A stretch of DNA of 64,000 bases from Methylotenera sp. (GCF_029945535.1 NZ_JAQSCU010000018.1:117340-181339); one strand, 5' to 3'; numbered from the stretch's first letter, positions 7,369-64,000 are shown. The notes: generated from the sequence alone by a model not told the origin. Program-made: numbers and translations.

Positions 7369-7411
7369 GCCTGTATAGGCTTTATTTACACTCTTAAATT
7401 AAGGATATTTT

Positions 7412-7903: not shown

Positions 7904-7957
7904 TGCTTGTAGCGTTAAACTGTAATCTAGCAATCATATTGGATTACGCTGTTTAAC

Positions 7958-8740: not shown

Positions 8741-8746
8741 CCGCAT

Positions 8747-37416: not shown

Positions 37417-37427
37417 AATTCTTGTTC

Positions 37428-38636: not shown

Positions 38637-38649
38637 TTCGAGTTATTCA

Positions 38650-48191: not shown

Positions 48192-48209
48192 GCTTCCTTA
48201 TTTTATGAA

Positions 48210-48671
48210 TTACTTATTGAGTAACTCGCGTACTTTACGGACTTCTTCTTCAGTCAGCGGGACATCACCAGCCATTGTTTGACGTCTGCGCAACTGTAGA
48301 AATAAACTAAAACCGCCAATCAATAGCAAGGCAAATGGCCCTAGCCATAATAAAACGGTGCTCGCTTTAAGCGGCGGGCGATAGCGCACAAAATCGCCAT
48401 AACGCGCGACCAAGTAGTCAATAATCTCTTGGTCGCTCATGCCTTTAGCAGCCATTTCGCGAATCTCTTGCACTAAATCTTGCGCCAGCTCCGCATGCGA
48501 ATCTGCCAACGTCTGGTTTTGACAAACTAGGCAACGTAGCTGGCTAGATAAGCGCTGCACTTGCACCTCAACAGCAGCGTTGTCTTGCAGTGGACGTGCG
48601 TCTTGTGCAACGGCGTTCAATGCGCAGATTAAAAGGCTAGCGGCAAATAAATGTAGTAGTTTATTGAGCAT
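48210..48671 (-). CDS. ccmH: Cytochrome c-type biogenesis protein CcmH (CycL)
   Basis: 153-aa ORF. Signature LRCLVCQNQTLADS (CXXC) and a C-terminal TM segment. Confidence 0.9.
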   Translation of the reverse strand: MLNKLLHLFAASLLICALNAVAQDARPLQDNAAVEVQVQRLSSQLRCLVCQNQTLADSHAELAQDLVQEIREMAAKGMSDQEIIDYLVARYGDFVRYRPPLKASTVLLWLGPFALLLIGGFSLFLQLRRRQTMAGDVPLTEEEVRKVRELLNK

Positions 48672-49198
48672 TATTGAGCCTGCAATTGTTTAACTAATGG
48701 GGCGATTTTATCGCGCAATGCTTCCATAGTGATTGGGCCGATTTGCTTGTAAGCAATCATGCCTTTTTTGTCAATCACATAGGTTTCTGGTACGCCATAA
48801 ACACCATAATCGATGCCCACACGACCATCTGCATCTACTGCGTTAATTGTGTAAGGATTACCAGCCTGATCTAGCCATTGTTGCGCATCTTGATTGTTAT
48901 CTTTGTAATCTAAACCAACAATAGGCACAAAATCTGATTTAGATAGCTCCACTAGAAGTGGGTGCTCATCTTTACAGGCCGCACACCATGATGCCCATGC
49001 GTTAAGTAGCCAGACCTTGCCTAACATTTCTTTAGGAGAGAATGTTTTATCAGCAGCATCTAAACGAGCCAAGTTAAACTGTGGCGCAGGCTTTCCTACT
49101 AATGGCGAAGGCACTTCTCTAGGGTTCAAAAACAAGCCTTTAAAAAGAAAACCAACCACCACTAAAAAAATAATTAACGGTAATAAAGCGCGCTTCAT
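48671..49198 (-). CDS. ccmG: Thiol:disulfide interchange protein CcmG/DsbE
   Basis: 175-aa ORF. WASWCAACKDEHP thioredoxin motif and the GVPETYVID motif. Confidence 0.9.
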   Translation of the reverse strand: MKRALLPLIIFLVVVGFLFKGLFLNPREVPSPLVGKPAPQFNLARLDAADKTFSPKEMLGKVWLLNAWASWCAACKDEHPLLVELSKSDFVPIVGLDYKDNNQDAQQWLDQAGNPYTINAVDADGRVGIDYGVYGVPETYVIDKKGMIAYKQIGPITMEALRDKIAPLVKQLQAQ

Positions 49199-51177
49199 GC
49201 CGTCACCTCGTCCTCAGTCAACTCGCCATTATTTGAGCTTTTATTACGCTTTTTCATACGATAGCGCCTATCAGATAAGGCCAACAAACCGCCTAATGCC
49301 ATCAATGCACAACCCGCCCATATCCATTCCACCATAGGCTTATGATAAATACGTATGCTCCAAGCGCCATCGCTGAGCGGCTCGCCAAGTGATGCATATA
49401 AGTCGTGAATCACCGCTGGACTAATACCAGCTTCAGTCATCGGCATATTAGTAACGGTGTACAGTCTTTTTTCAGTATTGAGTACAGTGCGCTCAACACC
49501 ATTTTTGCTCACGCGAATTTGACCTCTATTTGCGGTGTAATTTGGCCCTTGAATTTCATCTACGCCTATAAAGGTAAAATCAAAACCAGCTAAATGTGCA
49601 ACATCACCAGGTAGCATACGCACAGCGGTTTCTGACTCAAAACCTTTTACTACGGTAACGCCTATAGTAAATACAGCAATGCCTAAATGCGCAATGACCA
49701 TGCCCCACCAAGCGCGCGGAACGGCCTTGATACGTGAAGTTAAAGATTGTCCCACACCGCGTAAACGATGACGCACCATATTGAACGTGGTCGCGATAAT
49801 CCAGAAAGCTAAGAATAAACCTAGGCCTATCATTGGCGTTAAATTGCCTAACCAGAGTGGCAGGATAATGGCTGTGGCAATGCTGACGCCAAAAGCCCAG
49901 CGCAAACGTATGGCTAGTTCAGGTAATGAAGCATTCTTCCAGCTGGCTATTGGACCAACCCCCATCAAGAACAATGCAGGCGTCATGAGTGGCGCAAATA
50001 CTGCATCAAAATAAGGAGGGCCTACAGAGATTTTGCCGTAATTTAGTGCATCCAAGAACAACGGATAAAGCGTGCCGAGTAATACCGATATCGCCGCGAC
50101 GGCTAACAAAACGTTATTAGCGAGCAGAAAACTTTCGCGTGAAACTACACTGAACTTACCGCCACGACCAACCGTTGGTGCGCGCCAAGCAAATAACGCC
50201 AATGAACCGCCAATTACAATCACTAGGAACGCTAAAATAAATACGCCGCGTCTTGGGTCTGTGGCAAAAGCATGTACAGAAGTCAGTACACCTGAACGCA
50301 CTAAGAATGTTCCGAGTAGGCTTAAAGAGAATGCGCAAATCGCGAGTAATACTGTCCAAGCTTTAAAGCTGCCGCGTTTTTCAGTGACCGCTAGCGAGTG
50401 AATAAGCGCAGTACCCACTAGCCATGGCATGAATGATGCGTTTTCTACCGCATCCCAAAACCACCAACCGCCCCAACCTAGCTCGTAATACGCCCAGTTA
50501 CTACCACCTAAAATACCCAAAGTTAAGAACACCCATGCCAAAGTGGTCCAAGGGCGCGACCAGCGCGCCCAAGCGGCATCTAGCTGACCGCCAATCAAAG
50601 CGGCAATGGCAAAAGCAAATGCCACTGAAAAGCCAACATAACCCATATAAAGCATAGGTGGATGAAAGATCATGCCCGGATCTTGCAACAAAGGATTTAA
50701 ATCACGGCCATCTAAAGCTGCTGGAATTAAGCGATCAAATGGGTTTGAAACCATGAGCATGAACAGTAAAAAGCCTACGCTGATTAAGCCCATGACACCC
50801 AAAATGCGCGCACGCATATCATCTGGCAGATGCTTGGAGAATGCACTTACTGCCACAGTCCAAATACTTAATATCAATGCCCAAAGTAACAGTGACCCTT
50901 CATGACCGCCCCACACCGCTGCAATACGAAATTGTATAGGCAATTGTGAGTTTGAATTAGAGGCAACATACATGACCGAATAGTCTTTGGTTGCAAAAGC
51001 ATAAGCCAAGCAAATGAACGAAAATGCAATGAGCAAAAATTGTACGCGTGCGAGCGGTCTAGCTAGCCCCATCCAAGCCACATTGCCACGAGCAGCACCG
51101 ATGATAGGCAAGCTACCTAGCGTGAGCGCCACCAGCAAGGCGAGAATGAGAGAAAAATGGCCAATTTCAGGAATCAC
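49195..51177 (-). CDS. ccmF: Cytochrome c-type biogenesis haem lyase subunit CcmF
   Basis: 660-aa polytopic ORF. WWD-type motif WGGWWFWDAVENAS. Confidence 0.95.
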   Translation of the reverse strand: MIPEIGHFSLILALLVALTLGSLPIIGAARGNVAWMGLARPLARVQFLLIAFSFICLAYAFATKDYSVMYVASNSNSQLPIQFRIAAVWGGHEGSLLLWALILSIWTVAVSAFSKHLPDDMRARILGVMGLISVGFLLFMLMVSNPFDRLIPAALDGRDLNPLLQDPGMIFHPPMLYMGYVGFSVAFAFAIAALIGGQLDAAWARWSRPWTTLAWVFLTLGILGGSNWAYYELGWGGWWFWDAVENASFMPWLVGTALIHSLAVTEKRGSFKAWTVLLAICAFSLSLLGTFLVRSGVLTSVHAFATDPRRGVFILAFLVIVIGGSLALFAWRAPTVGRGGKFSVVSRESFLLANNVLLAVAAISVLLGTLYPLFLDALNYGKISVGPPYFDAVFAPLMTPALFLMGVGPIASWKNASLPELAIRLRWAFGVSIATAIILPLWLGNLTPMIGLGLFLAFWIIATTFNMVRHRLRGVGQSLTSRIKAVPRAWWGMVIAHLGIAVFTIGVTVVKGFESETAVRMLPGDVAHLAGFDFTFIGVDEIQGPNYTANRGQIRVSKNGVERTVLNTEKRLYTVTNMPMTEAGISPAVIHDLYASLGEPLSDGAWSIRIYHKPMVEWIWAGCALMALGGLLALSDRRYRMKKRNKSSNNGELTEDEVTA

Positions 51178-51332
51178 GTTAATATCCTTAGTGAGTTTTA
51201 ACTATAGTGAATTTAATCTAACTATTTATTGAATTGCGGGTGTTTTGATAATTGCATTGAACAGCTTTCTGCAGGTCAGCTTTTAAACCGACAAAGTCAG
51301 ACTAAAGCCCGACCTACATTTAACAAGCTGTA

Positions 51333-51791
51333 CTATTTCGGCATCACTACCGTTTTACCTTGTTCTTGAGCACGTTTTAGCGCCTCTGCAGCTTCTGGCG
51401 GCATATAGTTTTCATCATGTTTAGCAAGCACTTCACTAGCCATAAATATGCCATCTGGACCTAATTTACCTTGCGCTACCACGCCTTTACCTTCTTTAAA
51501 CAAATCCGGTAAAACACCCTTGTAAACAACTGGTACAGTTTTAGCGGTATCTGTAATAGCAAAATGCACGGTTAAACCATCATCTTGGCGCTTTAAACTA
51601 TCTTTTACTACTAAGCCACCAATACGGAAGCCAGTACCGTGCGGCACTTCACCTTTATCTACTTGCGTTGGTGTGTAGAAGAACACCATATTGCTTTGGA
51701 AAGCATTCAAAATAAGCATTGCGGCTAAGCCTAGCAATGCCAAACCAATCGCTATTAAAATAAATCGTTTATGTCGTGCTTTTATAGCCAT
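51333..51791 (-). CDS. ccmE: Haem chaperone CcmE
   Basis: I prefer the start at 51791 (MAIKARHKRFILIAIGLALLG); the track start at 51872 would overlap ccmD. Haem-binding region VLAKHDENYMPPE. Confidence 0.9.
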   Translation of the reverse strand: MAIKARHKRFILIAIGLALLGLAAMLILNAFQSNMVFFYTPTQVDKGEVPHGTGFRIGGLVVKDSLKRQDDGLTVHFAITDTAKTVPVVYKGVLPDLFKEGKGVVAQGKLGPDGIFMASEVLAKHDENYMPPEAAEALKRAQEQGKTVVMPK

Positions 51792-51792
51792 A

Positions 51793-51957
51793 TTAACCTT
51801 GTGCCAAAATTTTAGATAAACGTAATGCAGCTTTGCTACGTTTGCGCAGAGATATGACTTCCCAAGCGACACAAAGTGCCGTTAAGCCAAAAGAAAACCA
51901 CACATAAAATGCGTAGCCACCCATATTAAAAAATGCTGACCAACTTGCCCATTGCAT
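51793..51957 (-). CDS. ccmD: Haem exporter protein CcmD (54 aa; absent from the ORF track)
   Basis: My translation: MQWASWSAFFNMGGYAFYVWFSFGLTALCVAWEVISLRKRSKAALRLSKILAQG. A single TM segment followed by a basic tail. Its ATG shares one nt with the ccmC stop, and its stop lies 1 nt before the ccmE ATG. Confidence 0.8.
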   Translation of the reverse strand: MQWASWSAFFNMGGYAFYVWFSFGLTALCVAWEVISLRKRSKAALRLSKILAQG

Positions 51958-52706
51958 TATAATTTGCCTCCTGCTGTGACTGACAGCTCTTTAACCCAAT
52001 CCGATGAACGCTCACGTTCCAGCATAATGCAGCGTACGCGCATCAATGCAACCGCCACGGTATACATCCAAAAAGCTAAAGCCATCAGCAGCATGCCCAT
52101 CAACATAGTCGCCGCCATTTTCGGCGCCGCACCCATATTGATGCTGGAACCTTGATGCAAGGTATTCCACCATTTGACTGAAAAATAAATAATCGGCACG
52201 TTCACCACACCAACCAGCGCTAACAAAGCCCCCGCTCTATCTGCGCGACGCGGGTCATCAATTGACGCTTGCAAAGCAATAAAGCCAAGATACAAAAACA
52301 GTAATATAAGCTCAGAGGTTAAACGGGCGTCCCACACCCACCATGCGCCCCACATGGGCTTGCCCCACAGCGAACCTGTGACCAAAGCAAGTAAGGTAAA
52401 TATTGCCCCGGTTGGCGCTAAAGCTTGCGCCATCATGGCAGATAATCGCGCATTAAGCGCTAGCCCTAACGCCGCCCAACCAGCCATGACGATATAGATC
52501 ACCATGGACATCCAAGCAGCGGGCACATGGACAAAGATGATGCGATACGCTTCACCTTGTTGAAAATCAGTAGGGGCAACGGCAAAGCTAATGTACAAAC
52601 CTGCTATAGCGAAAATTGTGGCTAACCAAACAAACCATGGAATCATTTTTCCAGCTAATGGATAGAAAGTTTGTGGTGATGAATATTTAAACCAATTAAT
52701 GCTCAT
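51957..52706 (-). CDS. ccmC: Haem exporter protein CcmC
   Basis: 249-aa ORF. WWD motif WGAWWVWDARLTS. Confidence 0.95.
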   Translation of the reverse strand: MSINWFKYSSPQTFYPLAGKMIPWFVWLATIFAIAGLYISFAVAPTDFQQGEAYRIIFVHVPAAWMSMVIYIVMAGWAALGLALNARLSAMMAQALAPTGAIFTLLALVTGSLWGKPMWGAWWVWDARLTSELILLFLYLGFIALQASIDDPRRADRAGALLALVGVVNVPIIYFSVKWWNTLHQGSSINMGAAPKMAATMLMGMLLMALAFWMYTVAVALMRVRCIMLERERSSDWVKELSVTAGGKL

Positions 52707-52826
52707 AATTTATTTGCTCAAATTGCTCTGTAATTGCATTCAAATTGCACGGTAATGTTACTGTAATTCACGACTGCATTTCACGGCTGTCATTCACAGT
52801 GGCGCATATTTTACTCTACATGCGGT

Positions 52827-53495
52827 TTATTCTACAGAGATACGTAATGCAGCAGCTGTAGCTAATGGTGCTAACACCAAAGCAAGTAAAGAACAGGCAG
52901 CCAACAATGAAAGATGCGCCTGTGCACTCATGCCATGCTGACTTGCCGCGACTGCTCCAGCGCCAAAAATCAACACTGGAATGTATAAAGGTAACACTAA
53001 TAACGCCACCAACAACCCGCTACCACGAACGCCTAATGTGAGAGCAGCACCAATTGCGCCAATTAAACTCAATGCTGGCGTGCCTAACAATAAAGAAATA
53101 ATAAGCACAAATAACGCGTCGTTCGGTAAGGCATACTGCAAACCAATCAATGGCGCTAACAATACCACTGGCAAACCGCAAACCAGCCAATGAGCCAACA
53201 CCTTAGCCGTGACCAATAACGTCAATGGCTGCGGCGCGAGTAACATCTGTTCTAAACTACCATCAGCAAAATCTGCGGCAAATAAACGTGTAAGTGAAAG
53301 CATGCCAGCCAATAATGCCGCTACCCATAAAACACCTGGTGCGATGCTGCTCAGCACAGTAGGCTCTGGACCAATGCCAAGCGGAAATAAGCTGGAAACA
53401 ATCAAGAAGAAAAATAGCGTTGTCGCAACATCTGAACGTCTACGGAAAGCTAATAAAAGATCGCGCTTCAGCACGGTCATCCATGCACCGTTCAT
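52827..53495 (-). CDS. ccmB: Haem exporter membrane protein CcmB
   Basis: 222-aa six-TM ORF in the canonical position, overlapping the ccmA stop by 4 nt. Confidence 0.9.
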   Translation of the reverse strand: MNGAWMTVLKRDLLLAFRRRSDVATTLFFFLIVSSLFPLGIGPEPTVLSSIAPGVLWVAALLAGMLSLTRLFAADFADGSLEQMLLAPQPLTLLVTAKVLAHWLVCGLPVVLLAPLIGLQYALPNDALFVLIISLLLGTPALSLIGAIGAALTLGVRGSGLLVALLVLPLYIPVLIFGAGAVAASQHGMSAQAHLSLLAACSLLALVLAPLATAAALRISVE

Positions 53496-54109
53496 TCACT
53501 TAACCTCAAAGTTTGAGTGGACTGTGCATGAATTGCGACATCTTGATGAGTGGTAAGAATTGCCATTCCGCCACTGGATAGATGCTCCCCTAACTTTGCA
53601 GCAAGTATGCTAACTGACGCAATATCTAAGGCAGCAAAGGGTTCATCCAATATCCATAATTTACCTTCTGACAACCAAAGCTTAGCTAGCGTCACTCGTC
53701 TTTTTTGCCCCTGCGATAGCACGCGTGCTGGTAAATTTGCACAACGCTCGATTCCAATCGCTGCTAATGCCGCCAATGCTTTATCTTCTGTCACTTCATT
53801 ACCTGCGGCACGTGCGCTCATGGTTAAATTTTCTAGCGCAGTAAGATCATCTTTAAGCCCGTTCAAATGGCCAATATAAGTGAGATTGGACAAATAGCTT
53901 TCAGATTCTTCTTTGATAGGTTTTTTATTCCAGAAAACTGTTCCACTTTCTGGCAGCATCAATCCGCACAGCATGCGCAATAAACTACTTTTGCCACTAC
54001 CGTTCTCGCCCAGCACATAGAGCAGGCCGCCTGCATTAAGCTCAAACTCTACATTTTTAAACAGCAAGCGATCACCGCGCAAGCATGCTAACCCTTGCGT
54101 TAGTAACAT
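53492..54109 (-). CDS. ccmA: Haem exporter ATP-binding protein CcmA
   Basis: 205-aa ORF. Walker A GENGSGKS, ABC signature LSQGQKRR, Walker B LWILDEP. Confidence 0.95.
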   Translation of the reverse strand: MLLTQGLACLRGDRLLFKNVEFELNAGGLLYVLGENGSGKSSLLRMLCGLMLPESGTVFWNKKPIKEESESYLSNLTYIGHLNGLKDDLTALENLTMSARAAGNEVTEDKALAALAAIGIERCANLPARVLSQGQKRRVTLAKLWLSEGKLWILDEPFAALDIASVSILAAKLGEHLSSGGMAILTTHQDVAIHAQSTQTLRLSE

Positions 54110-56388
54110 TAAATGTCCAAACGGTAGCCGATAAAACTGAAATCGCGGAATGTGCGGGTGTGCCCTGGGTTAAAGCTGTCTGAATTATTTTCATTAGTCA
54201 CTTCTAAACCTACCTCTGCTTCTATAGTCGCCTTTTCGCGCAGGCGGTAGCTTGCTCTGACTGTCGGGCCAACAACATATTGCACGGAAGCTGGGTCCGA
54301 CTCAATTCTGAGTAACTTCACCGAGCTATCCAAGCGCCATTTATCACGAGGCACCATTACGTTAGTTAACACTACTGACTGAACACGGCTTGTTGGGCCA
54401 TCAATATAACTTACACTAATAATCGAAGTATCATCTTTAAATAGCGTGTCTAAACCTACTGCCTGCACATGGTAAGTATATGTATTACCACCTGTAAATG
54501 AATTACGCAGATTTTGTCTATCGAGATCACTTAAAAAAGTACCATTGTCTGCCGCTGTTTTTTCAGCAAGTGCTATTGCGCCATTACTGGCATTGGCACT
54601 ACCAGTTACCCTACTCATTTGAACATCTCCGCCCAATTGCCAGCGAGGCGTCACTTGACGTGTTGCACCTACCAAAAACAAGCTGGTATCCAATGTTTGG
54701 TTGATTGCATAATCTCTTAATCCTGACGCAGTTAAAGTATTTGGGGCGCTTATAGTACTACCTATTCGCAATGCCTGACGCAGCGATGTAGGCGTTGTTG
54801 GGTAAAACGTTTGATTTTGAAACGCGGGATCAAATAACGCATTAATCAACTGTAACACTGGCGACTTGCGATTTTCCATCAGGATATTATAACTGGTACC
54901 TTCTGCCGTTTGCCAGTTACCTTGCAACATAGCAGTATTTAAACGATTAAAATAAGTATCATAATCTACCACTGAGTATAACGATTTTCCCATATCAAAG
55001 TAACGCAACTCACCACCTACGCCACGCCTGTCAATTAAGTCATCGACCCTTTGCTCAATGAAAAATGTATTACCACTCCATTTTTCATTAATCGGACCAA
55101 TATCCAGATTGATTCCATAAAAATGCCGTCTGTAATCAATATTATATTCGTCCAATGCACCTGCAACAAAGTTCAATTTGTATTGCGGCGATAATCCATA
55201 ACGGAATAATCCACCATCAAAGCGACCTAAAACACCGCCAGAATTACCATTCTGTCTACCGATGCGTGTCATAAAGTCTGAGTCTTTATTCTGCAATTCA
55301 ACATAAGCAGCTTGCAACCTATTGCGATCTGCCTTATTCGGCAGAAAGTCCATGGTTTGCGTATTACGGATTACAATTCGGTTATCCCACTCGTTTTGGC
55401 GGAATCGGGCAGTAAGGTCTATCGCACTCACTAATTGAGACTGATCATGCGTTCCCGTATTTTTGCCAGAGCCTGGATAATTATGGCTGTGCGCATCATA
55501 GTAATACTGATTCCAGCTACCATAGACCGTATTTTCGTGGATATCTCGAATTGGCTTTTTGGTTTTAGCCGCATCCGCACTGCTAAATTTATTTGAACCC
55601 TCTAACGCGGTTAAACGTTGGCGAACGCGTGTAGCGCCTTCACCCTCTGGATAAAGCTTAAGATATGTTTCATACTCTGCTTTTGCCTTAGACATTTCAC
55701 CCATTTTTTCACGCGAATTAGCAATTAGCTCTTGGGCATCTTGTGAATGAGTATTGCTTGGCAAACCGAGTACAGCATTCAGTAATTGCACTGCTTTGGG
55801 GTAATCACCAACACCTCTTGCTACGCGCGCCTCAGAAACCAACTTTGCGGCATAATCGTTATCACTCATATCAGCAGGCTTAGCTGGAATTTCACCTTGA
55901 GGGCCGTGATCAATGACAGGTGCTACTGGCGACTCAACAGCTGGTTCTGCAATGACTTCTGCCTTGTCTTTTGGCACATGAATCACTATACCGCGACCAC
56001 TATTGTCTGGCGTAACAGTGAATTTGACTGGGCTTTTAAATCGCACACCTATGCTATTAGAATTTTGCTCAGGATAGTTAACGGTAAAACGAGGTAAGAG
56101 ATTTGTTTTGGGTGAATTTCGAAATTCACGCTGATTTGATAGCGTTTCTTTTGAGAACTGAGGAAACTCTAAAAAGATTTGAATGCGGGAAGTTTCAGTA
56201 TTTAAGGGTGCATGCCTTAAATAACGCACTTGCGTTAAGAACTCAATATGAATTTCCGTCTCGTTTTGAGCTTGTACGATTTCAACTTTATCAAGAAGTT
56301 TATCTGCATGTGCCAACGAAGGCACAAGTGAACAAACAACCGCTAAAACAAGGTAAAAGCTTTTGGATAAATTCACATTAACCCTCAT
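54109..56388 (-). CDS. Large secreted protein: N-terminal beta-rich module, TPR segment and a ~480-aa putative outer-membrane beta-barrel. Translationally coupled to ccmA.
   Basis: The ORF is open to 56445, but that is a TTG start. I prefer the ATG at 56388 (MRVNVNLSKSFYLVLAVVCSLVPSLAHA) or the GTG at 56376, which is preceded by GAGGG. TPR-like YPKAVQLLNAVLGL...AKAEYETYLKLYPEGEG. The C-terminal two thirds have alternating-hydrophobic, Gly/Tyr/Asn-rich strands. The TAA stop overlaps the ccmA ATG (TAATG). Confidence 0.75.
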   Translation of the reverse strand: MRVNVNLSKSFYLVLAVVCSLVPSLAHADKLLDKVEIVQAQNETEIHIEFLTQVRYLRHAPLNTETSRIQIFLEFPQFSKETLSNQREFRNSPKTNLLPRFTVNYPEQNSNSIGVRFKSPVKFTVTPDNSGRGIVIHVPKDKAEVIAEPAVESPVAPVIDHGPQGEIPAKPADMSDNDYAAKLVSEARVARGVGDYPKAVQLLNAVLGLPSNTHSQDAQELIANSREKMGEMSKAKAEYETYLKLYPEGEGATRVRQRLTALEGSNKFSSADAAKTKKPIRDIHENTVYGSWNQYYYDAHSHNYPGSGKNTGTHDQSQLVSAIDLTARFRQNEWDNRIVIRNTQTMDFLPNKADRNRLQAAYVELQNKDSDFMTRIGRQNGNSGGVLGRFDGGLFRYGLSPQYKLNFVAGALDEYNIDYRRHFYGINLDIGPINEKWSGNTFFIEQRVDDLIDRRGVGGELRYFDMGKSLYSVVDYDTYFNRLNTAMLQGNWQTAEGTSYNILMENRKSPVLQLINALFDPAFQNQTFYPTTPTSLRQALRIGSTISAPNTLTASGLRDYAINQTLDTSLFLVGATRQVTPRWQLGGDVQMSRVTGSANASNGAIALAEKTAADNGTFLSDLDRQNLRNSFTGGNTYTYHVQAVGLDTLFKDDTSIISVSYIDGPTSRVQSVVLTNVMVPRDKWRLDSSVKLLRIESDPASVQYVVGPTVRASYRLREKATIEAEVGLEVTNENNSDSFNPGHTRTFRDFSFIGYRLDI

Positions 56389-56416
56389 TTCTAAGGCATT
56401 AATTGCATATAGCCAA

Positions 56417-56445
56417 ATAGTATTTATTTTTTTCATAAAAGTCAA
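56417..56445 (-). promoter_or_regulatory. Candidate sigma-70 promoter for the OMP-ccm transcription unit
   Basis: Minus-strand TTGACT (56445-56440), a 17-nt spacer, then TACTAT (56422-56417). It sits about 30 nt upstream of the preferred ATG at 56388. Confidence 0.45.
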
Positions 56446-56524: not shown

Positions 56525-59500
56525 TTATTTGTCGAATGTATTAGTGTTGTGACAACCTGAAGAGTTACAGTCTTTAGGTGAATTATGTGATTTTGACTCA
56601 ACTCCAACATATCTAGCACCATGACAAGATCTACATGTTGCGGTCAATAACGAATGGTTAGGTTTTTTAGGATTACTAAAGCTAGTGGTGCCAGTGTGGC
56701 AAGCATCACAAGAAATTCCAATTACAGGCACATGGTTAGATATTACGCCCATGGCAGCGGCGCCATTATGGCAAGTTGAGCAACTACTTGGAGCGATGCC
56801 TGTATGGTTAAAGGCTGCGCCAGTAAATGTAGTAGTCGATTTATGGCAAGTTTCACAACCCGCAGTAGTCTGTACATGGTTAGCAGACTTGCCTAACGCT
56901 GTAGTTCCATTGTGACATTTCGCACAACCTGTGGTGATGCCAGTATGGTTCATAGTAGCACCAGTAAACGTTGTCGTAGACTTATGACAAGTTTCGCAAG
57001 AAGCTGTAGTTTGTACGTGGTTACTTGGCTTGCCTTTTGCCGTTGACCCATTATGGCAAGTTGCGCAGCCAGAAGTGATGCCGGTATGATTCATCGCTCC
57101 TGTACTAAATGTCGTCGTCGATTTATGGCAGGTTTCACAAGATGCCGTAGTTTGCACGTGCGTACTTGGTTTGCCTATTGCAGTTGATCCGTTATGACAA
57201 GTTGCACAACCGCTGGTAATGCCCGTGTGGTTCATGGTTGTACCAGCAAACGAAGTGGTTGATTTATGGCAAGTCTCGCACGATGCAGTGGTTTTTATAT
57301 GAGTACTTGGTTTCCCTGCCGCTGTATTACCATTGTGACAAGTTGCACAACCACTCACAATGCCAGTATGGTTAAAGGCTGCACCTAAAAACGATGTTGT
57401 TGACTTGTGACAGCTTTCACAAGATGCCGTAGTTTGCACGTGATTACTTGGTTTACCCATTGCCGTTGAACCGTTATGACATTTAGCACACCCCGTCGTA
57501 ATACCAGTGTGGTTCATCGCTGTGCCAGCGAAGCTTGTCGTAGATTTATGGCAAGTTTCACACGATGCAGTCGTAGCAATATGGGTACTTGGCTTACCTA
57601 GTGCCGTTGACCCGTTATGGCAAGTTGCGCAGCCAGAAGTGATGCCAGTATGATTCATCGCTCCTGTACTAAATGTCGTCGTCGATTTATGGCAGGTTTC
57701 ACACGATGCGGTCGTAGCAATATGGGTACTTGGCTTTCCTTTGGCTGTAGCCCCATTGTGACAAGTAGCACACCCCGTTGTAATGCCAGTGTGATTCATC
57801 ACAGTTCCAGCAAACGAAGTGGTCGATTTATGGCAAGTTTCACACGATGCGGTCGTAGCAATATGGGTACTTGGCTTTCCTAGTGCCGTTGACCCGTTAT
57901 GGCAAGTTGCGCAGCCAAAAGTGATGCCAGTATGATTCATCGCTCCTGTACTAAATGTCGTCGTCGATTTATGGCAGGTTTCACACGACGATGTTGTTTG
58001 CACGTGAGTACTTGGCTTTCCTTTGGCCGTTGACCCATTGTGGCAAGTGGCACACCCCGTCGTAATGCCAGTGTGATTCATCACAGTTCCAGCAAACGAA
58101 GTAGTAGATTTATGGCAAGTTTCACACGATGCGGTCGTTGCAATATGGGTACTTGGCTTACCTAGTGCTGTTGACCCGTTATGGCAAGTCGCGCAACCAG
58201 TGGTAATCCCAGTATGATTCATTGCGCCACCTTTGAAGCTGGCGGTGGACTTGTGGCAAGTCTCACAAGCCGCTGCAGTGGATATATGAGTGCTTGGTTT
58301 AGAAACTGGTTTAACACCTGCAAAGCCCGTGCCGTTATGGCAACTTGAACAGCCCGCGGTAATGCCTGTGTGGTTCATCGCTGTGCCAGCGAAGCTGGTG
58401 GTGGATTTATGGCAGGTTTCACAGGCCGCTGTGGTTGGGATGTGGTTGCTTGGTTTAGCTAAGCCAGAGCCGCCTGTTTTATGGCAGGTTGCACAACCGG
58501 TGGTAATGCCGGTATGGTTCATCGCTGCGCCACCTTTGAAGCTGGTGGTGCTCTTATGGCAGGTTTCACAGGCCGCGGTGGTAGCGATGTGGCTGCTGGG
58601 TTTGGATTTGATGTTGGCAAAGCCACCGCCGTGACAGGTCGCACAGCCAGTGGTGATACCGGTGTGGTTCATTGCAGCACCCTTAAAGCTGGTTGTGCCC
58701 TTGTGGCACGTATCACAAGATGCTGTTGTTGGTACGTGACCAGCACTCATTCCTGACGCAGTTTTACCATGACAAGTTGCACAACTACCTGGCGCAACCC
58801 CACTATGATCCATTTTTCCATGTTTAAAACTGGTGGTTGAGTTATGACAAGTTTCGCAAGCCGCAGATGTTTTAATGTGATTACTGGATTTGCCAAGCGC
58901 CTTATTTCCATCGTGGCAACTTGCGCAGCCGCCGCTTATACCCGTGTGGTTCATTTTTGCAGGTATCCAGCCAGTTGTCTTATGGCAGGCGTCACATGAT
59001 TGGCTGGTACTAATATGTCCAGCTTTCTTCCCCGTAGCTGTTTTGCCATGACAAGTCGCACAAGTTCCAGCGGCGACGCCTGTATGATCATGACCTAATG
59101 CTGGCAACCAAGCATTAGTGCTCTTGTGACAAGTATCGCAATTAGCCGCTGTTGCAAGATGCTGAGCAGGCTTACCACGCACATTGGTATTATTGTGACA
59201 GGCTGAACATGTGCCATTAGTTGCACTGTCGTGCACAAAATTTACCGATGGCCAATTCGTAGATTTATGGCAAGTTTCACAACTTTTATTTGTAGGTATA
59301 TGCTGACTAGGCTTAGCTGAGGCTGAAGCACGACCACTTTGTACATGGCAACTCTCACACTGTTTAGGAGTTCCCTTGAAAATGCCGTTTGTATGACAGC
59401 TTTCGCAGTTAACTTTTAGGTGAGCACCACTTAAAAGGAAACCCGTTTTACTGTGATTAAAATTGGTTGCTGAGCGACCTCTTTGGCTTGCAGCTGAAGC

Positions 59501-59626
59501 ATCACCTGTTGAGAATGATAAAATAATCAATAATGTTGCCAATAACAAAGCAGTCCAGTTCAGCATAGCGAATATACGGCCTGATTGGGTGGAGTCTGCT
59601 TTACTTACTGATATCATTGGTAACAT
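56525..59626 (-). CDS. Giant multihaem c-type cytochrome, about 40 CXXCH motifs (paired-CXXCH repeat architecture)
   Basis: 1033-aa ORF. GGAGGA Shine-Dalgarno 5 nt before the ATG. N-terminal hydrophobic signal or anchor (WTALLLATLLIILSF). By hand I count 40 CXXCH plus one terminal CNSSGCH. The repeating unit is CATCHNGSTALGKPSTHIATTASCETCHKSTTSFAGTxMNHTGITTG. Confidence 0.9.
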   Translation of the reverse strand: MLPMISVSKADSTQSGRIFAMLNWTALLLATLLIILSFSTGDASAASQRGRSATNFNHSKTGFLLSGAHLKVNCESCHTNGIFKGTPKQCESCHVQSGRASASAKPSQHIPTNKSCETCHKSTNWPSVNFVHDSATNGTCSACHNNTNVRGKPAQHLATAANCDTCHKSTNAWLPALGHDHTGVAAGTCATCHGKTATGKKAGHISTSQSCDACHKTTGWIPAKMNHTGISGGCASCHDGNKALGKSSNHIKTSAACETCHNSTTSFKHGKMDHSGVAPGSCATCHGKTASGMSAGHVPTTASCDTCHKGTTSFKGAAMNHTGITTGCATCHGGGFANIKSKPSSHIATTAACETCHKSTTSFKGGAAMNHTGITTGCATCHKTGGSGLAKPSNHIPTTAACETCHKSTTSFAGTAMNHTGITAGCSSCHNGTGFAGVKPVSKPSTHISTAAACETCHKSTASFKGGAMNHTGITTGCATCHNGSTALGKPSTHIATTASCETCHKSTTSFAGTVMNHTGITTGCATCHNGSTAKGKPSTHVQTTSSCETCHKSTTTFSTGAMNHTGITFGCATCHNGSTALGKPSTHIATTASCETCHKSTTSFAGTVMNHTGITTGCATCHNGATAKGKPSTHIATTASCETCHKSTTTFSTGAMNHTGITSGCATCHNGSTALGKPSTHIATTASCETCHKSTTSFAGTAMNHTGITTGCAKCHNGSTAMGKPSNHVQTTASCESCHKSTTSFLGAAFNHTGIVSGCATCHNGNTAAGKPSTHIKTTASCETCHKSTTSFAGTTMNHTGITSGCATCHNGSTAIGKPSTHVQTTASCETCHKSTTTFSTGAMNHTGITSGCATCHNGSTAKGKPSNHVQTTASCETCHKSTTTFTGATMNHTGITTGCAKCHNGTTALGKSANHVQTTAGCETCHKSTTTFTGAAFNHTGIAPSSCSTCHNGAAAMGVISNHVPVIGISCDACHTGTTSFSNPKKPNHSLLTATCRSCHGARYVGVESKSHNSPKDCNSSGCHNTNTFDK
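56783..58195 (-). repeat. In-frame tandem coding repeat array: ten units of 141 nt (47 aa, two haem sites each; one unit is 144 nt) with a 282-nt higher-order period
   Basis: Unit boundaries were checked at the CAKCH codons (56926) and CATCH codons (58195). The string GCCGTTGACCC(G/A)TTATGGCAAGTTGCGCAGCC recurs at 57039, 57603 and 57885 (offsets 564 and 282), with a slightly diverged copy at 58167. Confidence 0.85.
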
Positions 59627-59741
59627 TTAATCCTCCTCGAGGAGTTATTGGCGAGCATCATGCACACCAACGTATCGCCTTAAAAAGGCTTTGAACTTTA
59701 AATTCAATTGAGCGACTAAACAGTCTAAAAATACAATTTTT

Positions 59742-59819
59742 GTGTGAAATTTTCACACGAAAGCCAATAATACGTGTGACAAATTCACACGTCAACCACT
59801 TTGTGTAAAAAAATCCCAC
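59742..59819. promoter_or_regulatory. Three phased palindromic sites GTGTGA-N5-TCACAC in the divergent intergenic region (candidate operators)
   Basis: Site 1, 59742-59758: GTGTGAAATTTTCACAC (8-bp arms). Site 2, 59772-59792: ACGTGTGA-CAAAT-TCACACGT (8-bp arms). Site 3, 59803-59819: GTGTAAAAAAATCCCAC (2 mismatches). Centres are 32 and 29 bp apart. Confidence 0.55.
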
Positions 59820-59851
59820 ATATTTTTTCAATTATTTGTATAATTTAAACC

Positions 59852-60685
59852 ATGACAAAGAACGCTGAAATTTCTTCTGATAACCCTATAAAGGAAAAAG
59901 TACTCACCGCTTTACAACGTGTAATGAAGCCGCTCGTCAGGCTGGCGCTGACGCAAGGCATTAACTATCAAATGCTGCTAGAAACATTGAAAATAGTCTT
60001 TGTACAGGTGGCTGAAGAAGAATTTAAATTATCGCAACGTGAACAAACTGATAGTCGAATCAGCTTACTTACGGGCTTGCATCGTAAAGATGTGCATCGA
60101 TTACGCGACTTACCTGAAAGCACACAAACAACATCTCTTGTTACTTTGGGCTCTCAATTGGTTGGCTTGTGGATTAGTGACGCCGATTTTGTTGATGCCC
60201 AAGGCAAACCTAAGCCTTTAGCGCGCTTAGCAAGTGTAGGTGGTAACGTCTCTTTTGATCGCCTTGTTGCGCGCGTTAGCAAAGACATTCGCGCTAGACC
60301 TGTGCTTGATGAGTGGCTAAGAATTGGTGTTGCCTACATAGATGATCAAGATCGCGTATGTTTGAATAACGAAGCATTTGTGCCAAGCGAAGGCTTTGAA
60401 GAGAAATTATTTTTCTTCCAACAAAATATACATGACCATGCCGCTGCAACGGCGCATAATTTAATGAACTTAACTCCCCCTATGTTAGAACGTTGCGTCT
60501 ATTACGACAGTCTGACATTAGAAGCTATTAGTGAATTAAAAGTGCTTGCAGAAAATCAAGGGATGACTGCGTTAAAGGCTGTCAATGCACGCGCCATTGA
60601 ATTGCAGACTGAATCTCAAAACAATGCTGATGCAAACCAGCGCTTTACCTATGCATTGTATTTTTACCATGTGCAGAAGACTTAA
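59852..60685 (+). CDS. Cytoplasmic protein of unknown function with a possible helix-turn-helix segment (resembles DUF6502-type proteins from memory, unverified)
   Basis: 277-aa ORF with no signal peptide. HTH-like stretch QTDSRISLLTGLHRKDVHRLR. Divergent from the giant cytochrome gene. No obvious SD, and TATAAT lies only 8 nt upstream of the ATG. Confidence 0.6.
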   Translation: MTKNAEISSDNPIKEKVLTALQRVMKPLVRLALTQGINYQMLLETLKIVFVQVAEEEFKLSQREQTDSRISLLTGLHRKDVHRLRDLPESTQTTSLVTLGSQLVGLWISDADFVDAQGKPKPLARLASVGGNVSFDRLVARVSKDIRARPVLDEWLRIGVAYIDDQDRVCLNNEAFVPSEGFEEKLFFFQQNIHDHAAATAHNLMNLTPPMLERCVYYDSLTLEAISELKVLAENQGMTALKAVNARAIELQTESQNNADANQRFTYALYFYHVQKT

Positions 60686-60803
60686 GCGCTTCATTGCCAC
60701 ATGCGTTCTACCGCAGAAAAACAGTTCGAATTGACTAGATGAGTATGTTGCAACTCACTCCAAGTGCCAATTCAAACTTAAGTTAACTGAAGGATTAGTT
60801 AAT

Positions 60804-62207
60804 ATGAAAACTTACATTCACAACTTCATCGCTATCATCTTGACGATATTGTCGTTATCGGCAAATGCCAACCCTTGTGACGATGGCGGTATAGGCGGCA
60901 CTGGCATGCCTTTAAGTCTTGGTACTGGCGGCATTGGTGGCACTGGCAACACTTCTGACAAATCTACAGGCATTGGTGGAACAGGCATTACCAGCGCGCA
61001 AGAAGGCATAGGCGGGACTGGCGTAACTAACAAAGGTATTGGTGGCACTGGTGTAGAAGCTGATAGTGGTATCGGCGGCACCGGTATTGTTGGCATCATC
61101 ACAGGGTTTGGCAGTATCTGTGTGAACGGATTAGAAGTGCATTACTACAATGACACTCCTATGGATTTAGATGGTAAAAAAATCAGCAGTGATGCACTCG
61201 CTGTTGGTCAAGTAGTAGCTGTAAAGGCGCACGGAAAAGAACAGTCACTGATCGCTCATGAAATACATGCTTTCTATCAAGTGACTGGGCCGATTACTGC
61301 AATTGATCTTGTCGCTAAAAAAATAAAAGTCATGGACCAATCTATCAATGCAAATGACACTCAAATCAACAATATGAAAATCGGGCAATGGCTGAGTGTA
61401 AGCGGCTTACGCAGTGAAGATGGCAGTATTGAAGCCAGTCGTATCGATCAATCTACTGAGCGTAAAATTGCCAAATTAGTTGGTAATTTAAGTATGCAGG
61501 GCAATAATGCCTATATAGGTGGCACTAAAATAGACGGCATATCCAACATGAATAACAACCCAAATGCTGACGCTCGTTTAACAGGCGTTTGGGATGGTAG
61601 CACCTTTAATGTTAAGGATATGAAACCTGGGCCAGTAAGTGACTTGCTACAAAAGGTCGAAGTTTTCCACTTGCAAGGCATCGCTGGTAGTAATGTGACC
61701 AATGGGAAAGTCAAGCTTTCTGGGCAAACTGTAGCCGTGCCAGCTAATATCAAAATTCTTGGTAATAGCTCAACTAGCATAGCAGGCAAACCTATTGTCG
61801 CGCACGGCCAAGTAAAAGATGGCAAGGCAAAAGCGCAATCAATTGAATTGCGTCCGATGAAAACGGAGGTCAAAAATCGTATGGACCGTCCGGTAAATTC
61901 ATCCCAATCTAATTCATCAGGGGAATCAGGCGAAAATACTAGCGCGAATGCAGTTAAAGCTACGGCCTCAAATAAAAGTGAAATTAAGCCTAAGAAAGCT
62001 GACAAAACCGAATTGTCTGACCGTGTTTATAAGCAAGAGCAAGTTGAAAAAGTAGAAAGGGCTGAGTCCATAGAGAGAGTCGAGACAGTTGAAAGGGTTG
62101 AGAGAGTGGAAACGCCGGAGAGAGTCGAGAAAGTTGAAAAGGTGGAGAGGGTAGAAACGCCTGATAGAGTCGAAAAAGTTGAAAGAGTGGAGAAGCGAGA
62201 TGACTAA
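60804..62207 (+). CDS. Secreted GIGGTG-repeat protein with a beta-rich core and a charged V-E-[KRT] repeat tail (resembles DUF5666-type proteins from memory, unverified)
   Basis: 467-aa ORF. Signal peptide MKTYIHNFIAIILTILSLSANA. Six GIGGTG copies between residues 29 and 94, then ITGFGSICVNG. The C-terminal 55 aa are VEKVERAESIERVETVERVERVETPERVEKVEKVERVETPDRVEKVERVEKRDD. Confidence 0.75.
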   Translation: MKTYIHNFIAIILTILSLSANANPCDDGGIGGTGMPLSLGTGGIGGTGNTSDKSTGIGGTGITSAQEGIGGTGVTNKGIGGTGVEADSGIGGTGIVGIITGFGSICVNGLEVHYYNDTPMDLDGKKISSDALAVGQVVAVKAHGKEQSLIAHEIHAFYQVTGPITAIDLVAKKIKVMDQSINANDTQINNMKIGQWLSVSGLRSEDGSIEASRIDQSTERKIAKLVGNLSMQGNNAYIGGTKIDGISNMNNNPNADARLTGVWDGSTFNVKDMKPGPVSDLLQKVEVFHLQGIAGSNVTNGKVKLSGQTVAVPANIKILGNSSTSIAGKPIVAHGQVKDGKAKAQSIELRPMKTEVKNRMDRPVNSSQSNSSGESGENTSANAVKATASNKSEIKPKKADKTELSDRVYKQEQVEKVERAESIERVETVERVERVETPERVEKVEKVERVETPDRVEKVERVEKRDD

Positions 62208-62302
62208 ATTTTCTTCAAAGCATCGCATCGATGCAGCCAACTTAACTTGAAGCACTATTCATTAAAAAATTTAATCGTAGATGTACACAACAAAAATAAA
62301 TT

Positions 62303-63091
62303 ATGAACTACAAAATTAAACTCAAAATAACTAACCTACTCATTTCTACAATTAGCCTTTTGCCTTTAGCAAGTTATGCCGAAGGTAAATTAAGTTTAAC
62401 TAGCGGCGTAGATTACAGCACTGGGAAATATGGACAATCTGAAGCGACAGACATTACTTACATTCCTTTTATTGCCAAGTATGATACTGGAAACACCACG
62501 CTAAAGCTGACTGTACCTTGGGTAAAAATAACTGGTCCAGGCGATGTGGTCGGCGGGAATACACCAATTGTAATAGGTTCGTCCAATCGCCCTATCACTA
62601 CTGAATCCGGCTTAGGTGATATTGTATTTTCTGCTACTCAAACCATTGCACAATTCGGTGAGAGTAATCCGCTACTATTAGAATTAACAGGTAAAGTTAA
62701 ATTTGCTACCGCCTCCAGTTCAAAGGGTTTAGGTACTGGCGAAAACGACTACACCGTAGAACTTGGTGCTTACAAATCAATCAATACCGCAGCAACTTTG
62801 TTTGGGGATATTGGCTATAAAAAACTAGGTGACCCCTCTGGCATTAATTTAAATAATGTTTGGTACGGATCAGTAGGGTTCGTTTATCAACTCAGCCCGG
62901 CCAACAGCGCTGGCATGATGGTGGATATTAGACAAGCAACAATGAATACCTCCCAGCCGTTAAGGGAACTCACGGTATTTTTAACGCATAAATTTAATGC
63001 AAATTACAAATTGCAAACTTACCTTACCACTGGCAATACTGATGCCAGCACTGACTTGGCTGGCGGTCTAATGTTAGGCTGGATGTTCTAA
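62303..63091 (+). CDS. Small outer-membrane beta-barrel (transporter of the MetA-pathway / phenol-degradation-like OMP family, by motif)
   Basis: 262-aa ORF. Signal peptide (LLPLASYA), SGLGDIVFSA motif typical of that family, alternating strands, C-terminal GLMLGWMF with terminal Phe. Confidence 0.65.
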   Translation: MNYKIKLKITNLLISTISLLPLASYAEGKLSLTSGVDYSTGKYGQSEATDITYIPFIAKYDTGNTTLKLTVPWVKITGPGDVVGGNTPIVIGSSNRPITTESGLGDIVFSATQTIAQFGESNPLLLELTGKVKFATASSSKGLGTGENDYTVELGAYKSINTAATLFGDIGYKKLGDPSGINLNNVWYGSVGFVYQLSPANSAGMMVDIRQATMNTSQPLRELTVFLTHKFNANYKLQTYLTTGNTDASTDLAGGLMLGWMF

Positions 63092-63155: not shown

Positions 63156-64000
63156 CTACCTAGACATCCCAGCACCCATTTTCAGAGCTGCCCAAGTGTT
63201 AGAAACGTGGCAACGTTCACACTGACGACCAAAACCTCCATCATGAACATCGTCTGATGAGTGACAATCCCCACACGTAACTGAGATCAGCAGCTTATGT
63301 CCTTTAGATGGGGTTCTGTGACACTCATAACAGCCTATGCCTTTATGACCACCATCAAGCTTAAATTTAGTTTTTTTATCATGATCAAAATCCCAAGCTT
63401 TCCAGTCTCGTGCGTTATGGCACGTTTCGCATGCGGGGCCTAACTTAAGCTTATGCACATCGTCTTTTGTGTGGCAGCTGATACATTCTGACTTCGCCGC
63501 TTTAAACTCTGCTGTCAGATGGCAACTCTTACAATCTACTTTAAAGTGTTTACCCAACAAAGGAAACTTCGATTTTGCATGATCAAATTTAGCATCCTTC
63601 CAAGATTTCGCGTTATGGCAATCTTCGCACTTATCACCCTCTTGCCCCTTATGCTTATCATCAGACTTATGACAACTAATACAGGTGCTTTTTACCTTAC
63701 CTCTGTATAGGTTAGCTTTGTGGCAAGAATCACATTTAGTCGCTCTGTGTTTATCAAGCAATTTATACTTGGTGTCACGGTCATGATCAAAAATGAGCGT
63801 TTTCCAGGTTTTTTCTATGTGACAGGTTTCACATTTTTGATCATAACGACCCTTATGACCTTTACTATCATCATCTTTCTTGTGGCATGAGTAGCAATCA
63901 GTTTTCAGGTTTTGCCCATAAAGCTTGCCTTTATGACACTCAACACATTTAGTGTCCTTATGCTTTTCCTTAAGTGGATATTTAGTATCACGAGTATGGT
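63156..64000 (-). CDS. Poly-c7-type multihaem cytochrome, C-terminal ~281 codons (N-terminus beyond the window end)
   Basis: The track ORF 63156-63761 starts at an internal TTG. My translation shows the frame stays open to 64000 (HTRDTKYPLKEKHKDTKCVECHKGKLYGQNLKTDCYSCHKKDDDSKGHKGRYDQKCETCHIEKTWKTLIFDHDRDTKYKLLDKH...). There are 12 CXXCH motifs in four ~66-70-aa trihaem modules. Confidence 0.85.
   Translation of the reverse strand, partial: HTRDTKYPLKEKHKDTKCVECHKGKLYGQNLKTDCYSCHKKDDDSKGHKGRYDQKCETCHIEKTWKTLIFDHDRDTKYKLLDKHRATKCDSCHKANLYRGKVKSTCISCHKSDDKHKGQEGDKCEDCHNAKSWKDAKFDHAKSKFPLLGKHFKVDCKSCHLTAEFKAAKSECISCHTKDDVHKLKLGPACETCHNARDWKAWDFDHDKKTKFKLDGGHKGIGCYECHRTPSKGHKLLISVTCGDCHSSDDVHDGGFGRQCERCHVSNTWAALKMGAGMSR

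Follow-up and report, generated by a model that had tools for sequence, protein, structure and literature searches.

A stretch of 64,000 nucleotides from Methylotenera sp. (GCF_029945535.1, NZ_JAQSCU010000018.1:117340-181339), hereafter called the window and numbered from its first letter, carries on its minus strand a gene for a giant multihaem cytochrome c (56525..59626). A gene for a beta-barrel protein of the outer membrane and the genes of a cytochrome c maturation system lie downstream of it, and three genes on the opposite strand stand between it and a second multihaem cytochrome gene, which runs off the end of the window. The window holds the outer half of a locus for PCC3, a putative porin-cytochrome conduit, and the locus is a further example of this already catalogued system and no new kind of system. 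The large protein corresponds to what has been named the 'extracellular' multihaem cytochrome (eMHC) of PCC3 and the second one to its 'periplasmic' multihaem cytochrome (pMHC). Comparison loci from other genomes are designated by L numbers where they have to be told apart.

Haem sites, caps and repeats of the large cytochrome

The open reading frame (ORF) of the eMHC, taken from the ORF listing, runs from ATG to stop and encodes 1033 aa. A regular-expression count on the translation gave 40 CXXCH motifs, no CX3CH motif and one CX4CH motif (CNSSGCH, aa 1020-1026), and all 82 Cys residues lie inside these haem motifs. The protein contains 84 His residues, 41 in the motifs and 43 outside them, which amounts to 2.05 His per haem, and 2.0-2.1 were found in each of the orthologues examined. 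One invariant His stands ahead of each haem site and two extra ones (His58 and His69) precede the first two sites; the non-motif residues comprise 41 candidate distal ligands and two spares. T, S, A, G, K and N make up 63% of the residues and C and H another 16%, and T, S, G and A together account for 52% of the mature protein. One haem is carried per 25.2 aa in the full protein and per 24.1 aa in the mature form. With cleavage assumed after ASA (aa 45), the mature protein has a mass of 99.8 kDa without haem and ~125 kDa with 41 haems, a pI of 8.9, and only 10 haem-free tryptic peptides. An earlier note on this DNA had counted 40 CXXCH motifs and a terminal CNSSGCH by hand, and had described a 47-aa unit with two CXXCH motifs and the availability of one distal His per haem, all of which agree with the regular-expression count, with the ten units listed at aa 454-923 and with the 43 non-motif His for 41 haems; its masses (110 kDa apo and 135 kDa holo) were ~10 kDa above those calculated here without the signal peptide.

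The N-terminus reads as a Sec-type signal peptide (aa 1-45; 59492..59626, minus strand; alternative start M21), in which the hydrophobic core LLLATLLIILSF is followed by ASA and then AS. Cleavage would probably occur after ASA, and this N-terminus is kept in the orthologues of L013 and Methylotenera versatilis 301. The protein has no lipobox, because its first Cys (aa 74) is inside a CXXCH. A conserved N-terminal cap (aa 56-94; 59345..59461, minus strand), FNHSKTGFLLSGAHLKVNCESCH...CESCH, was recognised from a 30-sequence alignment and Pfam and combines two close haem sites with two upstream His; its consensus FDHxxTGFxLxGxH...CESCHxxGxFxGTPxxCxxCH is near-invariant in the alignment, and Pfam Cytochrom_CIII matches aa 66-123. 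The CX4CH haem site found by regular expression (56549..56569, minus strand) forms the C-terminal cap, and C(D/N/S)xSGCH is kept in the last ~25 residues of most homologues.

Haem motifs are spaced by 22-28 residues, with less regular copies before aa 454 and a strict 24/23 alternation from there to aa 923. The latter segment is a regular array of ten 47-aa two-haem units (56858..58267, minus strand; haems 17-36), established by Tandem Repeats Finder, unit listing, pairwise identities and direct-repeat families. Each unit consists of CETCHKSTTSFxGxxMNHTGITxG (24 aa) and CATCHNGSTAxGKPSTH(I/V)xTTAS (23 aa), and Tandem Repeats Finder reported in the gene a 141-nt period with 10.1 copies (72% matches) and a 282-nt period with five copies (79%). 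Two units have Phe where the others have the Met of MNHTG, and the His is constant in every unit, so the His is the likelier distal ligand.

A long ORF of this kind could be a product of mis-assembled tandem repeats or a pseudogene from which no protein is made, and orthologues in the short-read metagenome-assembled genomes (MAGs) L002, L004, L005 and L010 are indeed frameshifted or cut at contig ends. The ten regular units are identical at 81% of residues and 73% of nucleotides on average, and residues conserved between units use the same codon in only 49% of cases; the DNA copies are mostly 60-85% identical. The repeats have thus been kept in the protein while their codons diverged, as expected for old repeats under purifying selection and not for an assembly in which repeats were collapsed or duplicated. 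Two of the units, however, share 98% identity at the DNA level, so that the copy number could be off by one or two units. The ORF runs without interruption over its 3.1 kb, and both conserved caps are present. Intact orthologues of 896, 1337 and 833 aa occur in the finished M. versatilis 301 genome and in two long contigs (0.85 and 2.4 Mb), and six neighbouring proteins with exact matches in records of Methylotenera sp. carry consecutive NCBI protein accessions, which appear to leave two numbers for the porin and the eMHC. Exact look-ups with the eMHC (from both candidate starts) and the barrel protein (from one) gave no match, and the annotated starts probably differ. The gene is real and intact, and an artefact is extremely improbable.

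A catalytic role of the eMHC as a reductase or oxidase was considered and rejected, because the protein has no non-cytochrome domain, offers a spare His for each haem site, and contains no CXXCK or long-spacer site.

Neighbouring genes and identity with PCC3

The barrel gene (54109..56445, minus strand) begins 79 nt downstream of the eMHC gene and encodes 778 aa, and its product was identified as the PCC3 outer-membrane protein by AlphaFold2, Foldseek and homology. The protein has a signal peptide. Its AlphaFold2 model, built from a 36-sequence alignment, has a mean predicted local distance difference test score (pLDDT) of 78.8, with most of the barrel blocks at 80-93, and shows a beta-sandwich at the N-terminus, five helices of TPR type and a beta-barrel of 22 strands that carries two helical inserts. 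Foldseek searches with this model returned generic outer-membrane barrels (FimD usher, porins and FadL) at template modelling (TM) scores of ~0.2-0.3, and MtrB was not among the best 50 matches. These matches offered no clue to its function. In Pfam and NCBIfam the protein matched TPR/YfiO models weakly and no model of the MtrB family. The protein is 31% identical over its full length to the PCC3 porin of Ferribacterium. Its family, clustered at 50% identity, contains 2,313 clusters at E<=1e-3 and 1,076 of them at E<=1e-30 (of 1.84 billion representatives), and a genome scan with it matched mostly Methylotenera MAGs.

The visible part of the pMHC gene (63156..64000, minus strand) is its 3' part with 12 CXXCH motifs. 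Its product is 93% identical to the C-terminal 280 aa of a 666-aa 27-haem protein of M. versatilis 301, 91% identical to the corresponding part of the 27-haem protein of L013 and 54% identical to a 610-aa MHC of Ferribacterium. Complete orthologues of the pMHC consist of nine c7-like three-haem units of ~68 aa, are K/D/E-rich and carry 27 haems, and the counts found by lineage (18, 21, 24 and 27) are all multiples of three. The 5' half of the pMHC gene of the window, together with the gene for an inner-membrane protein, should lie just past base 64000. In the syntenic loci L016 (M. versatilis 301), L003, L010 and L004, and likewise in L001 and L008, two WX3HX13H motifs are encoded directly upstream of the pMHC gene, and in L013 and L015 a 274-aa gene at this position is a candidate for the inner-membrane protein. 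A crude hydropathy scan of the inner-membrane protein found 3-4 of five helices and no Pfam family was matched even at E<=1; judged by its motifs, the protein may be described as ferric-reductase-like.

He et al. 2017 (PMC5566968; Front Microbiol 8:1584), working from genome sequences, defined PCC3 as a system of four parts. These are a barrel 'porin', an 'extracellular' MHC (T/S/A/G-rich and built of repeats with one or two haem sites each, with a median of 34 haems and a maximum of 85, and with a median of 26 aa per haem in a range of 22-39), a 'periplasmic' MHC (median 21 haems, range 18-27), and a five-helix protein of ~300 aa that carries SGxxG and a pair of WX3HX13H motifs. The same study named M. 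versatilis 301 among the carriers of PCC3, and in its supplementary tables the word Methylotenera was found only in a Cyc2 table. Orthology to PCC3 was judged here through the strain 301 locus (CP002056.1:467390-488277) rather than through Slit_1446-1449 of Sideroxydans lithotrophicus ES-1. The strain 301 locus contains, in order, ccmF to ccmA, a 755-aa barrel, an 896-aa MHC, a DUF6502 protein, a DUF5666 protein, a 262-aa protein, the 666-aa MHC, a 274-aa membrane protein and an Fer4/FAD oxidoreductase, and the PCC3 locus of the window is syntenic with it gene for gene. Identities between the two amount to 94% for CcmA, 93% each for the barrel, the visible pMHC and the small outer-membrane protein, 85% for the DUF5666 protein and 82% for the eMHC. 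The 274-aa protein of strain 301 has both WX3HX13H motifs and SGLIG, and the eMHC of that strain carries 35 haems as counted in this analysis. In Ferribacterium limneticum the four genes form an uninterrupted core (303 aa, 24 haems, 60+1 haems and a 785-aa barrel), and the same core was found in MAGs of Betaproteobacteria, Steroidobacteraceae and Acidiferrobacteraceae. The window agrees with the published system in its adjacent barrel gene, in the haem count, haem density and repeats of the eMHC, in its second MHC and in its orthology to a named cluster.

Immediately downstream of the barrel gene lies ccmABCDEFGHI (46944..54109, minus strand), which encodes System I cytochrome c maturation and was recognised from its ORFs and from Pfam matches to CcmH, CcmI/CycH and the redoxin CcmG. 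The stop codon of the barrel gene overlaps the ccmA start by 1 nt (TAATG at 54109), which suggests translational coupling; promoter and terminator scans stayed at chance level and lent the operon boundaries no support beyond this overlap. The order eMHC-porin-ccm is repeated in L003, L010, L013 and L016. A CcmI/CycH-type gene adjoins PCC3 in L001 (17436-18659), L011 (17432-18466), L012 (6189-7460) and L015 (12483-13724), which belong to Ferribacterium, two other proteobacterial MAGs and a Methylophilaceae-like 2.4-Mb contig; in Methylotenera the whole ccm operon is found at this place.

Upstream of the eMHC gene, a divergent intergenic region (59627..59851) shared with a DUF6502 gene presumably contains the promoters of both genes. 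Two sigma-70-like matches of 10/12 were found on the minus strand (59858-59831 and 59795-59767), which are weak, and the regional total of promoter-like matches equals the chance expectation. The three plus-strand genes between the two cytochrome genes (59852..63091) were characterised mainly with Pfam and encode a DUF6502 protein (59852-60685), a DUF5666 protein (60804-62207) whose N-terminus has GIGGTG repeats and whose C-terminus ends in a tail of (E/D)RVE(K/T)VERVE repeats such as ERVEKVERVE, and a putative small protein of the outer membrane (62303-63091), 262 aa long and 45% identical to the Ferribacterium copy. This triad also stands beside PCC3 in other Methylotenera loci, in Ferribacterium (L001) and in a Betaproteobacteria MAG (L011), and in Methylotenera it splits the PCC3 cluster in two from the opposite strand.

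A protein of ~435-470 aa with Fer4 and FAD/NAD(P) (Pyr_redox_2/3) domains is encoded on the strand opposite to the inner-membrane gene in seven loci, which represent four or more lineages (L016 16323-17630, L015 1-987, L004 1637-2977, L001 4731-6029, L011 5471-6766, L012 4586-5893 and L008 1830-3248). Its gene is divergent wherever both gene ends are visible and lies one to a few genes away from the inner-membrane gene; in the window it would be expected beyond base 64000. Speculatively, this oxidoreductase and the inner-membrane protein with its two haem-b motifs might make up a split module of the NOX/FRE type through which NAD(P)H feeds in electrons. No mention of the CcmI/ccm link, the Fer4/FAD neighbour, the triad, or the split and ccm arrangement of Methylotenera was found in the main text of He et al.

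A response regulator and a sensor kinase with a 2CSK_N domain, together a two-component system, are encoded a few kb from PCC3 both in the window (40231-42271, plus strand) and in Ferribacterium (L001 19737-21742), which may be a coincidence. Other genes of the window include one for a 1297-aa fusion of DUF3683, an FAD-linked oxidase, a 4Fe-4S dicluster domain, CCG and DUF3400 (20106-23999, minus strand), a glycolate-oxidase/heterodisulfide-reductase-like iron-sulfur flavoprotein that is unrelated to the eMHC, and one for a two-haem cbb3-type cytochrome c (31667-32578, minus strand), besides a tRNA gene (32717-32790, plus strand). A further minus-strand region (34303-40020) contains a gene named by NCBI as a CusA/CzcA-type heavy-metal RND efflux transporter, and the two ORFs that follow it (37428-38636 and 38650-40020) may encode its membrane-fusion and outer-membrane partners. 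The genes from the cbb3-type cytochrome onwards are unremarkable.

Haem number, proposed function and alternatives

A word-indexed search identified at least 2,280 homologues of the eMHC at E<=1e-10. The best 120 of them contain 28-64 CXXCH motifs (median 52) at 25-34 aa per haem, mostly 26-29. For this family 41 haems are ordinary, and the statement in the earlier note that haem counts this high are rare was overstated, the more so as He et al. recorded up to 85. Among the Methylotenera-type loci, the eMHC carries 33 haems in L015 (7443-9944), 35 in strain 301 (L016 7085-9775), 41 in the window, 45 in L003 (6486-9866) and 53 in L013 (5836-9849). The corresponding barrels are 53% (L015), 93% (L016), 69% (L003) and 89% (L013) identical to that of the window, and the pMHC has 27 haems in every locus of this type where it is complete. 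Across families the eMHC ranges from 9 to more than 60 haems and the pMHC from 18 to 27, and Hoover et al. described 21, 24 or 27 haems for the pMHC against 10-35 for the eMHC of Gallionellaceae. The units of the eMHC are uncharged and hold two haems, and those of the pMHC are charged and hold three.

In 55 complete proteins the number of CXXCH motifs was even in 43 and odd in 12, with no mod-4 preference. A change in steps of four haems, as the series 33, 41, 45 and 53 might suggest, was rejected on account of the 35-haem protein of strain 301 and the family counts. The mostly even CXXCH counts, together with the terminal CX4CH, indicate that the unit of length change is the two-haem module. 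A fixed length would be expected of a pMHC that is bounded by two membranes and so constrained by how wide the periplasm is, and a free length would suit an eMHC with one free end outside the cell. This pattern of lengths appears to favour the topology proposed in the literature over a role confined to the periplasm. In L009 (Burkholderiaceae MAG JAXMEE010000005.1), two same-frame ORFs (916-6540 and 6682-9378) with 74 and 35 CXXCH motifs lie directly upstream of a PCC3-type barrel gene, and they represent either two outer cytochromes or one protein of more than 100 haems broken by stop codons.

We consider it probable that the eMHC is the outer ('extracellular') cytochrome of a PCC3-type porin-cytochrome conduit in Methylotenera. 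Its apoprotein would be exported by Sec, a co-expressed Ccm system including CcmI would attach the 41 haems, and the product would be held at or through the 22-strand barrel. Electrons would hop from haem to haem along a bis-His chain within one polypeptide ~30-37 nm long, a length extrapolated from the ~8-9 Å per haem of MtrCAB and OmcS. The chain may thereby connect a periplasm-spanning 27-haem pMHC and the haem-b protein of the inner membrane with insoluble or macromolecular redox partners beyond the cell, for example Fe minerals or humic substances. The bis-His ligation, low potential and stacking of the haems, the location of the protein and the direction of the electrons are all presumptive here, and for this methylotroph the outward disposal of electrons under O2 limitation seems somewhat more likely than the uptake of Fe(II). 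The observation reported in the earlier note stands, and its reading of the protein as a wire is plausible and agrees with the published interpretation of the family (PMC5566968); it overstated the rarity of such haem counts, as described above, and had missed the surrounding system with its porin, partner cytochrome and ccm genes.

Several points weigh against this assignment. PCC3 was still called 'functionally unverified' in 2025, and its transcripts in Sideroxydans CL21 do not track iron oxidation (PMC12442390). In proteomes of S. lithotrophicus ES-1 the eMHC Slit_1448 was never detected and the porin and the inner-membrane protein were (PMC12016527), a difference that may be technical because nearly all tryptic peptides of such a protein carry haem. 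The extracellular location is predicted by generic tools, and the label used in the literature derives solely from CELLO/PSORTb predictions (PMC5566968); the earlier note, which had found no lipobox, had also left the location open. The protein lacks a lipobox, no secretion system was identified among the annotated genes of the window, and the window contains neither the inner-membrane protein nor the first half of the pMHC. An AlphaFold2 model of the mature eMHC without haem (30-sequence alignment) was unusable, with a mean pLDDT of 46.6 and a predicted TM score of 0.25, and haem stacking is therefore still something that we infer.

The same lack of a lipobox would call for some other anchor, and this may be counted in favour of an arrangement in which the eMHC, and not the pMHC, sits in the barrel as MtrA does in MtrB, so that a single polypeptide crosses the outer membrane and lies partly in the periplasm and partly outside. 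The periplasmic TPR domain of the barrel would guide the eMHC in, as in TPR-barrel polysaccharide exporters, and TPR helices are indeed present in the barrel protein. The genes of the eMHC and the barrel are adjacent, with a gap of 79 nt, and always paired, and in Methylotenera three opposite-strand genes separate them from the pMHC and inner-membrane genes. MtrA, the barrel-inserted subunit of MtrCAB, is moreover the only solved structure that the eMHC matches, and TIGR03508 is found in seven stretches of it. That similarity, however, is weak and owes most to the haem motifs. MtrB is missing from the best 50 Foldseek matches of the barrel model, whose TM scores are ~0.3 and indicate no specific resemblance to it, and the published model puts the pMHC in the pore (PMC5566968). 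Threading of the eMHC through the barrel is thus unlikely. Retention of the eMHC in the periplasm, where it would act as a capacitor for ~41 electrons or as a redox buffer, would agree with a Sec signal as the only export signal, with the missing lipobox and with the absence of a secretion system from the annotated genes of the window, and a capacitor role for many-haem PCC3 cytochromes has been raised before (PMC10734462). Such a store is nevertheless difficult to reconcile with the constant pairing of the eMHC gene with an outer-membrane barrel gene and with a length that varies freely among close relatives. A charged pMHC of fixed length already fits the periplasmic role, and the S/T/G/A-rich and almost uncharged eMHC is unlike the K/D/E-rich pMHC, although this last point is a weak one. 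We therefore regard a periplasmic store as quite improbable.

Beyond the assignment of the eMHC as the outer cytochrome of PCC3, a more far-reaching reading would make it a single-polypeptide nanowire of genetically set reach within a self-contained machine for electron export from NAD(P)H, which is conceivable and at present doubtful. How far it extends from the cell surface would then differ between close strains through gain or loss of 47-aa two-haem units, with the 27-haem pMHC staying constant. A cytoplasmic Fer4/FAD/NAD(P)H protein and the two-haem-b membrane protein, resembling a split NOX/FRE, would feed electrons in, a 27-haem wire would cross the periplasm, and a 41-haem wire would be held or threaded by the TPR-barrel, the cytochromes being matured by the cluster-linked CcmI or ccm operon. 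If true, electrons from NAD(P)H could reach minerals or humic substances in aerobic methylotrophs without passing through the quinone pool.

PCC3 is among the most widespread predicted systems for extracellular electron transfer. M. versatilis 301 is cultured, fully sequenced and has the same locus (82-94% identical), and is thus a tractable organism in which PCC3 could be tested. PCC3 could then be studied in a fast-growing heterotroph rather than in fastidious iron oxidisers. The comparison of loci yields testable predictions, which concern the two-haem steps of the eMHC versus a fixed pMHC, the linkage of CcmI or ccm, and the Fer4/FAD and triad neighbours. Electron export by methylotrophs, if true, would bear on the turnover of methanol and methane carbon in anoxic, iron- or humic-rich waters, as has been hypothesised (PMC6344600).

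Relation to known cytochromes and conduits

A search of the eMHC with domain models, as the earlier note had proposed, gave matches to Pfam Cytochrome_C7 (PF14522; 191.8 bits against a cutoff of 24.8, in 23 stretches), to TIGR04257 (54.7 bits against a cutoff of 40) and to Pfam MtrC/MtrF domain II/IV (79.8 bits). The protein belongs to the c7 type at the domain level only, its repeat unit having two haems and not three, and by the match to MtrC/MtrF domain II/IV its haem domains are related to those of the MtrC type. TIGR03507 (OmcA/MtrC) reached 55.3 bits against a cutoff of 209.3, and without this score or a lipobox the eMHC falls outside that family. The DmsE/MtrA model TIGR03508, which describes proteins with ten haems in about 300-350 aa, reached 150 bits in its seven partial stretches and so stayed short of its cutoff of 192.2. 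When the PDB was searched by sequence, MtrA of Shewanella baltica (6R2Q chain A) was the only significant match of the whole eMHC (E 1.4e-6), and a profile of the 94-aa double unit gave a best E of 1.8e-4 that was driven by the CXXCH context; no solved structure thus serves as a guide to the two-haem unit. OmcS, OmcE and OmcZ were absent from the PDB matches of both the whole protein and the repeat-unit profile.

With the decahaem family of MtrA, DmsE, MtoA and PioA the eMHC shares c-type haems, in its case with predicted bis-His ligation, in a thin, protein-poor chain and a gene that lies beside a barrel gene. MtrA has 10 haems, however, compared with 41 in the eMHC, which repeats regularly in units of 47 aa with two haems each. 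The partner barrel of the window, with 22 predicted strands and a TPR domain, has no detectable relation to MtrB and was thus not recognised as an MtrB homologue of the kind that accompanies the cytochromes of MtrCAB, MtoAB and PioAB. The GSU1996-type 'nanowire' cytochromes of Geobacter sulfurreducens (TIGR04257) resemble the eMHC in being single polypeptides with tandem small haem domains in a linear chain. GSU1996 is a periplasmic protein with 12 haems and no dedicated porin. Its c7 domains hold three haems each, an architecture that is seen in the neighbouring pMHC and not in the eMHC, where each unit has two haems in 47 aa and one His is available per haem. For the OmcS, OmcE and OmcZ filaments of Geobacter the proposed job is alike, namely long-range extracellular electron transport over tens of nm. 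These filaments are non-covalent polymers of subunits with 4-8 haems, whereas the length of the eMHC is encoded in one polypeptide and is changed by gain or loss of repeats.

The closest counterparts of the eMHC are the PCC3 proteins themselves, such as Slit_1448 of S. lithotrophicus ES-1, the 85-haem protein of Agromonas oligotrophica S58 and the protein of M. versatilis 301, with which it shares the nearby barrel and pMHC genes, the T/S/A/G-rich repeats and a density of ~25 aa per haem. They differ in haem number, with 41 in the window, 35 in strain 301 and 18 in ES-1, and the Methylotenera form of PCC3 is set apart by its gene order, in which the opposite-strand triad splits the cluster and the genes of eMHC and porin are joined to the ccm operon.

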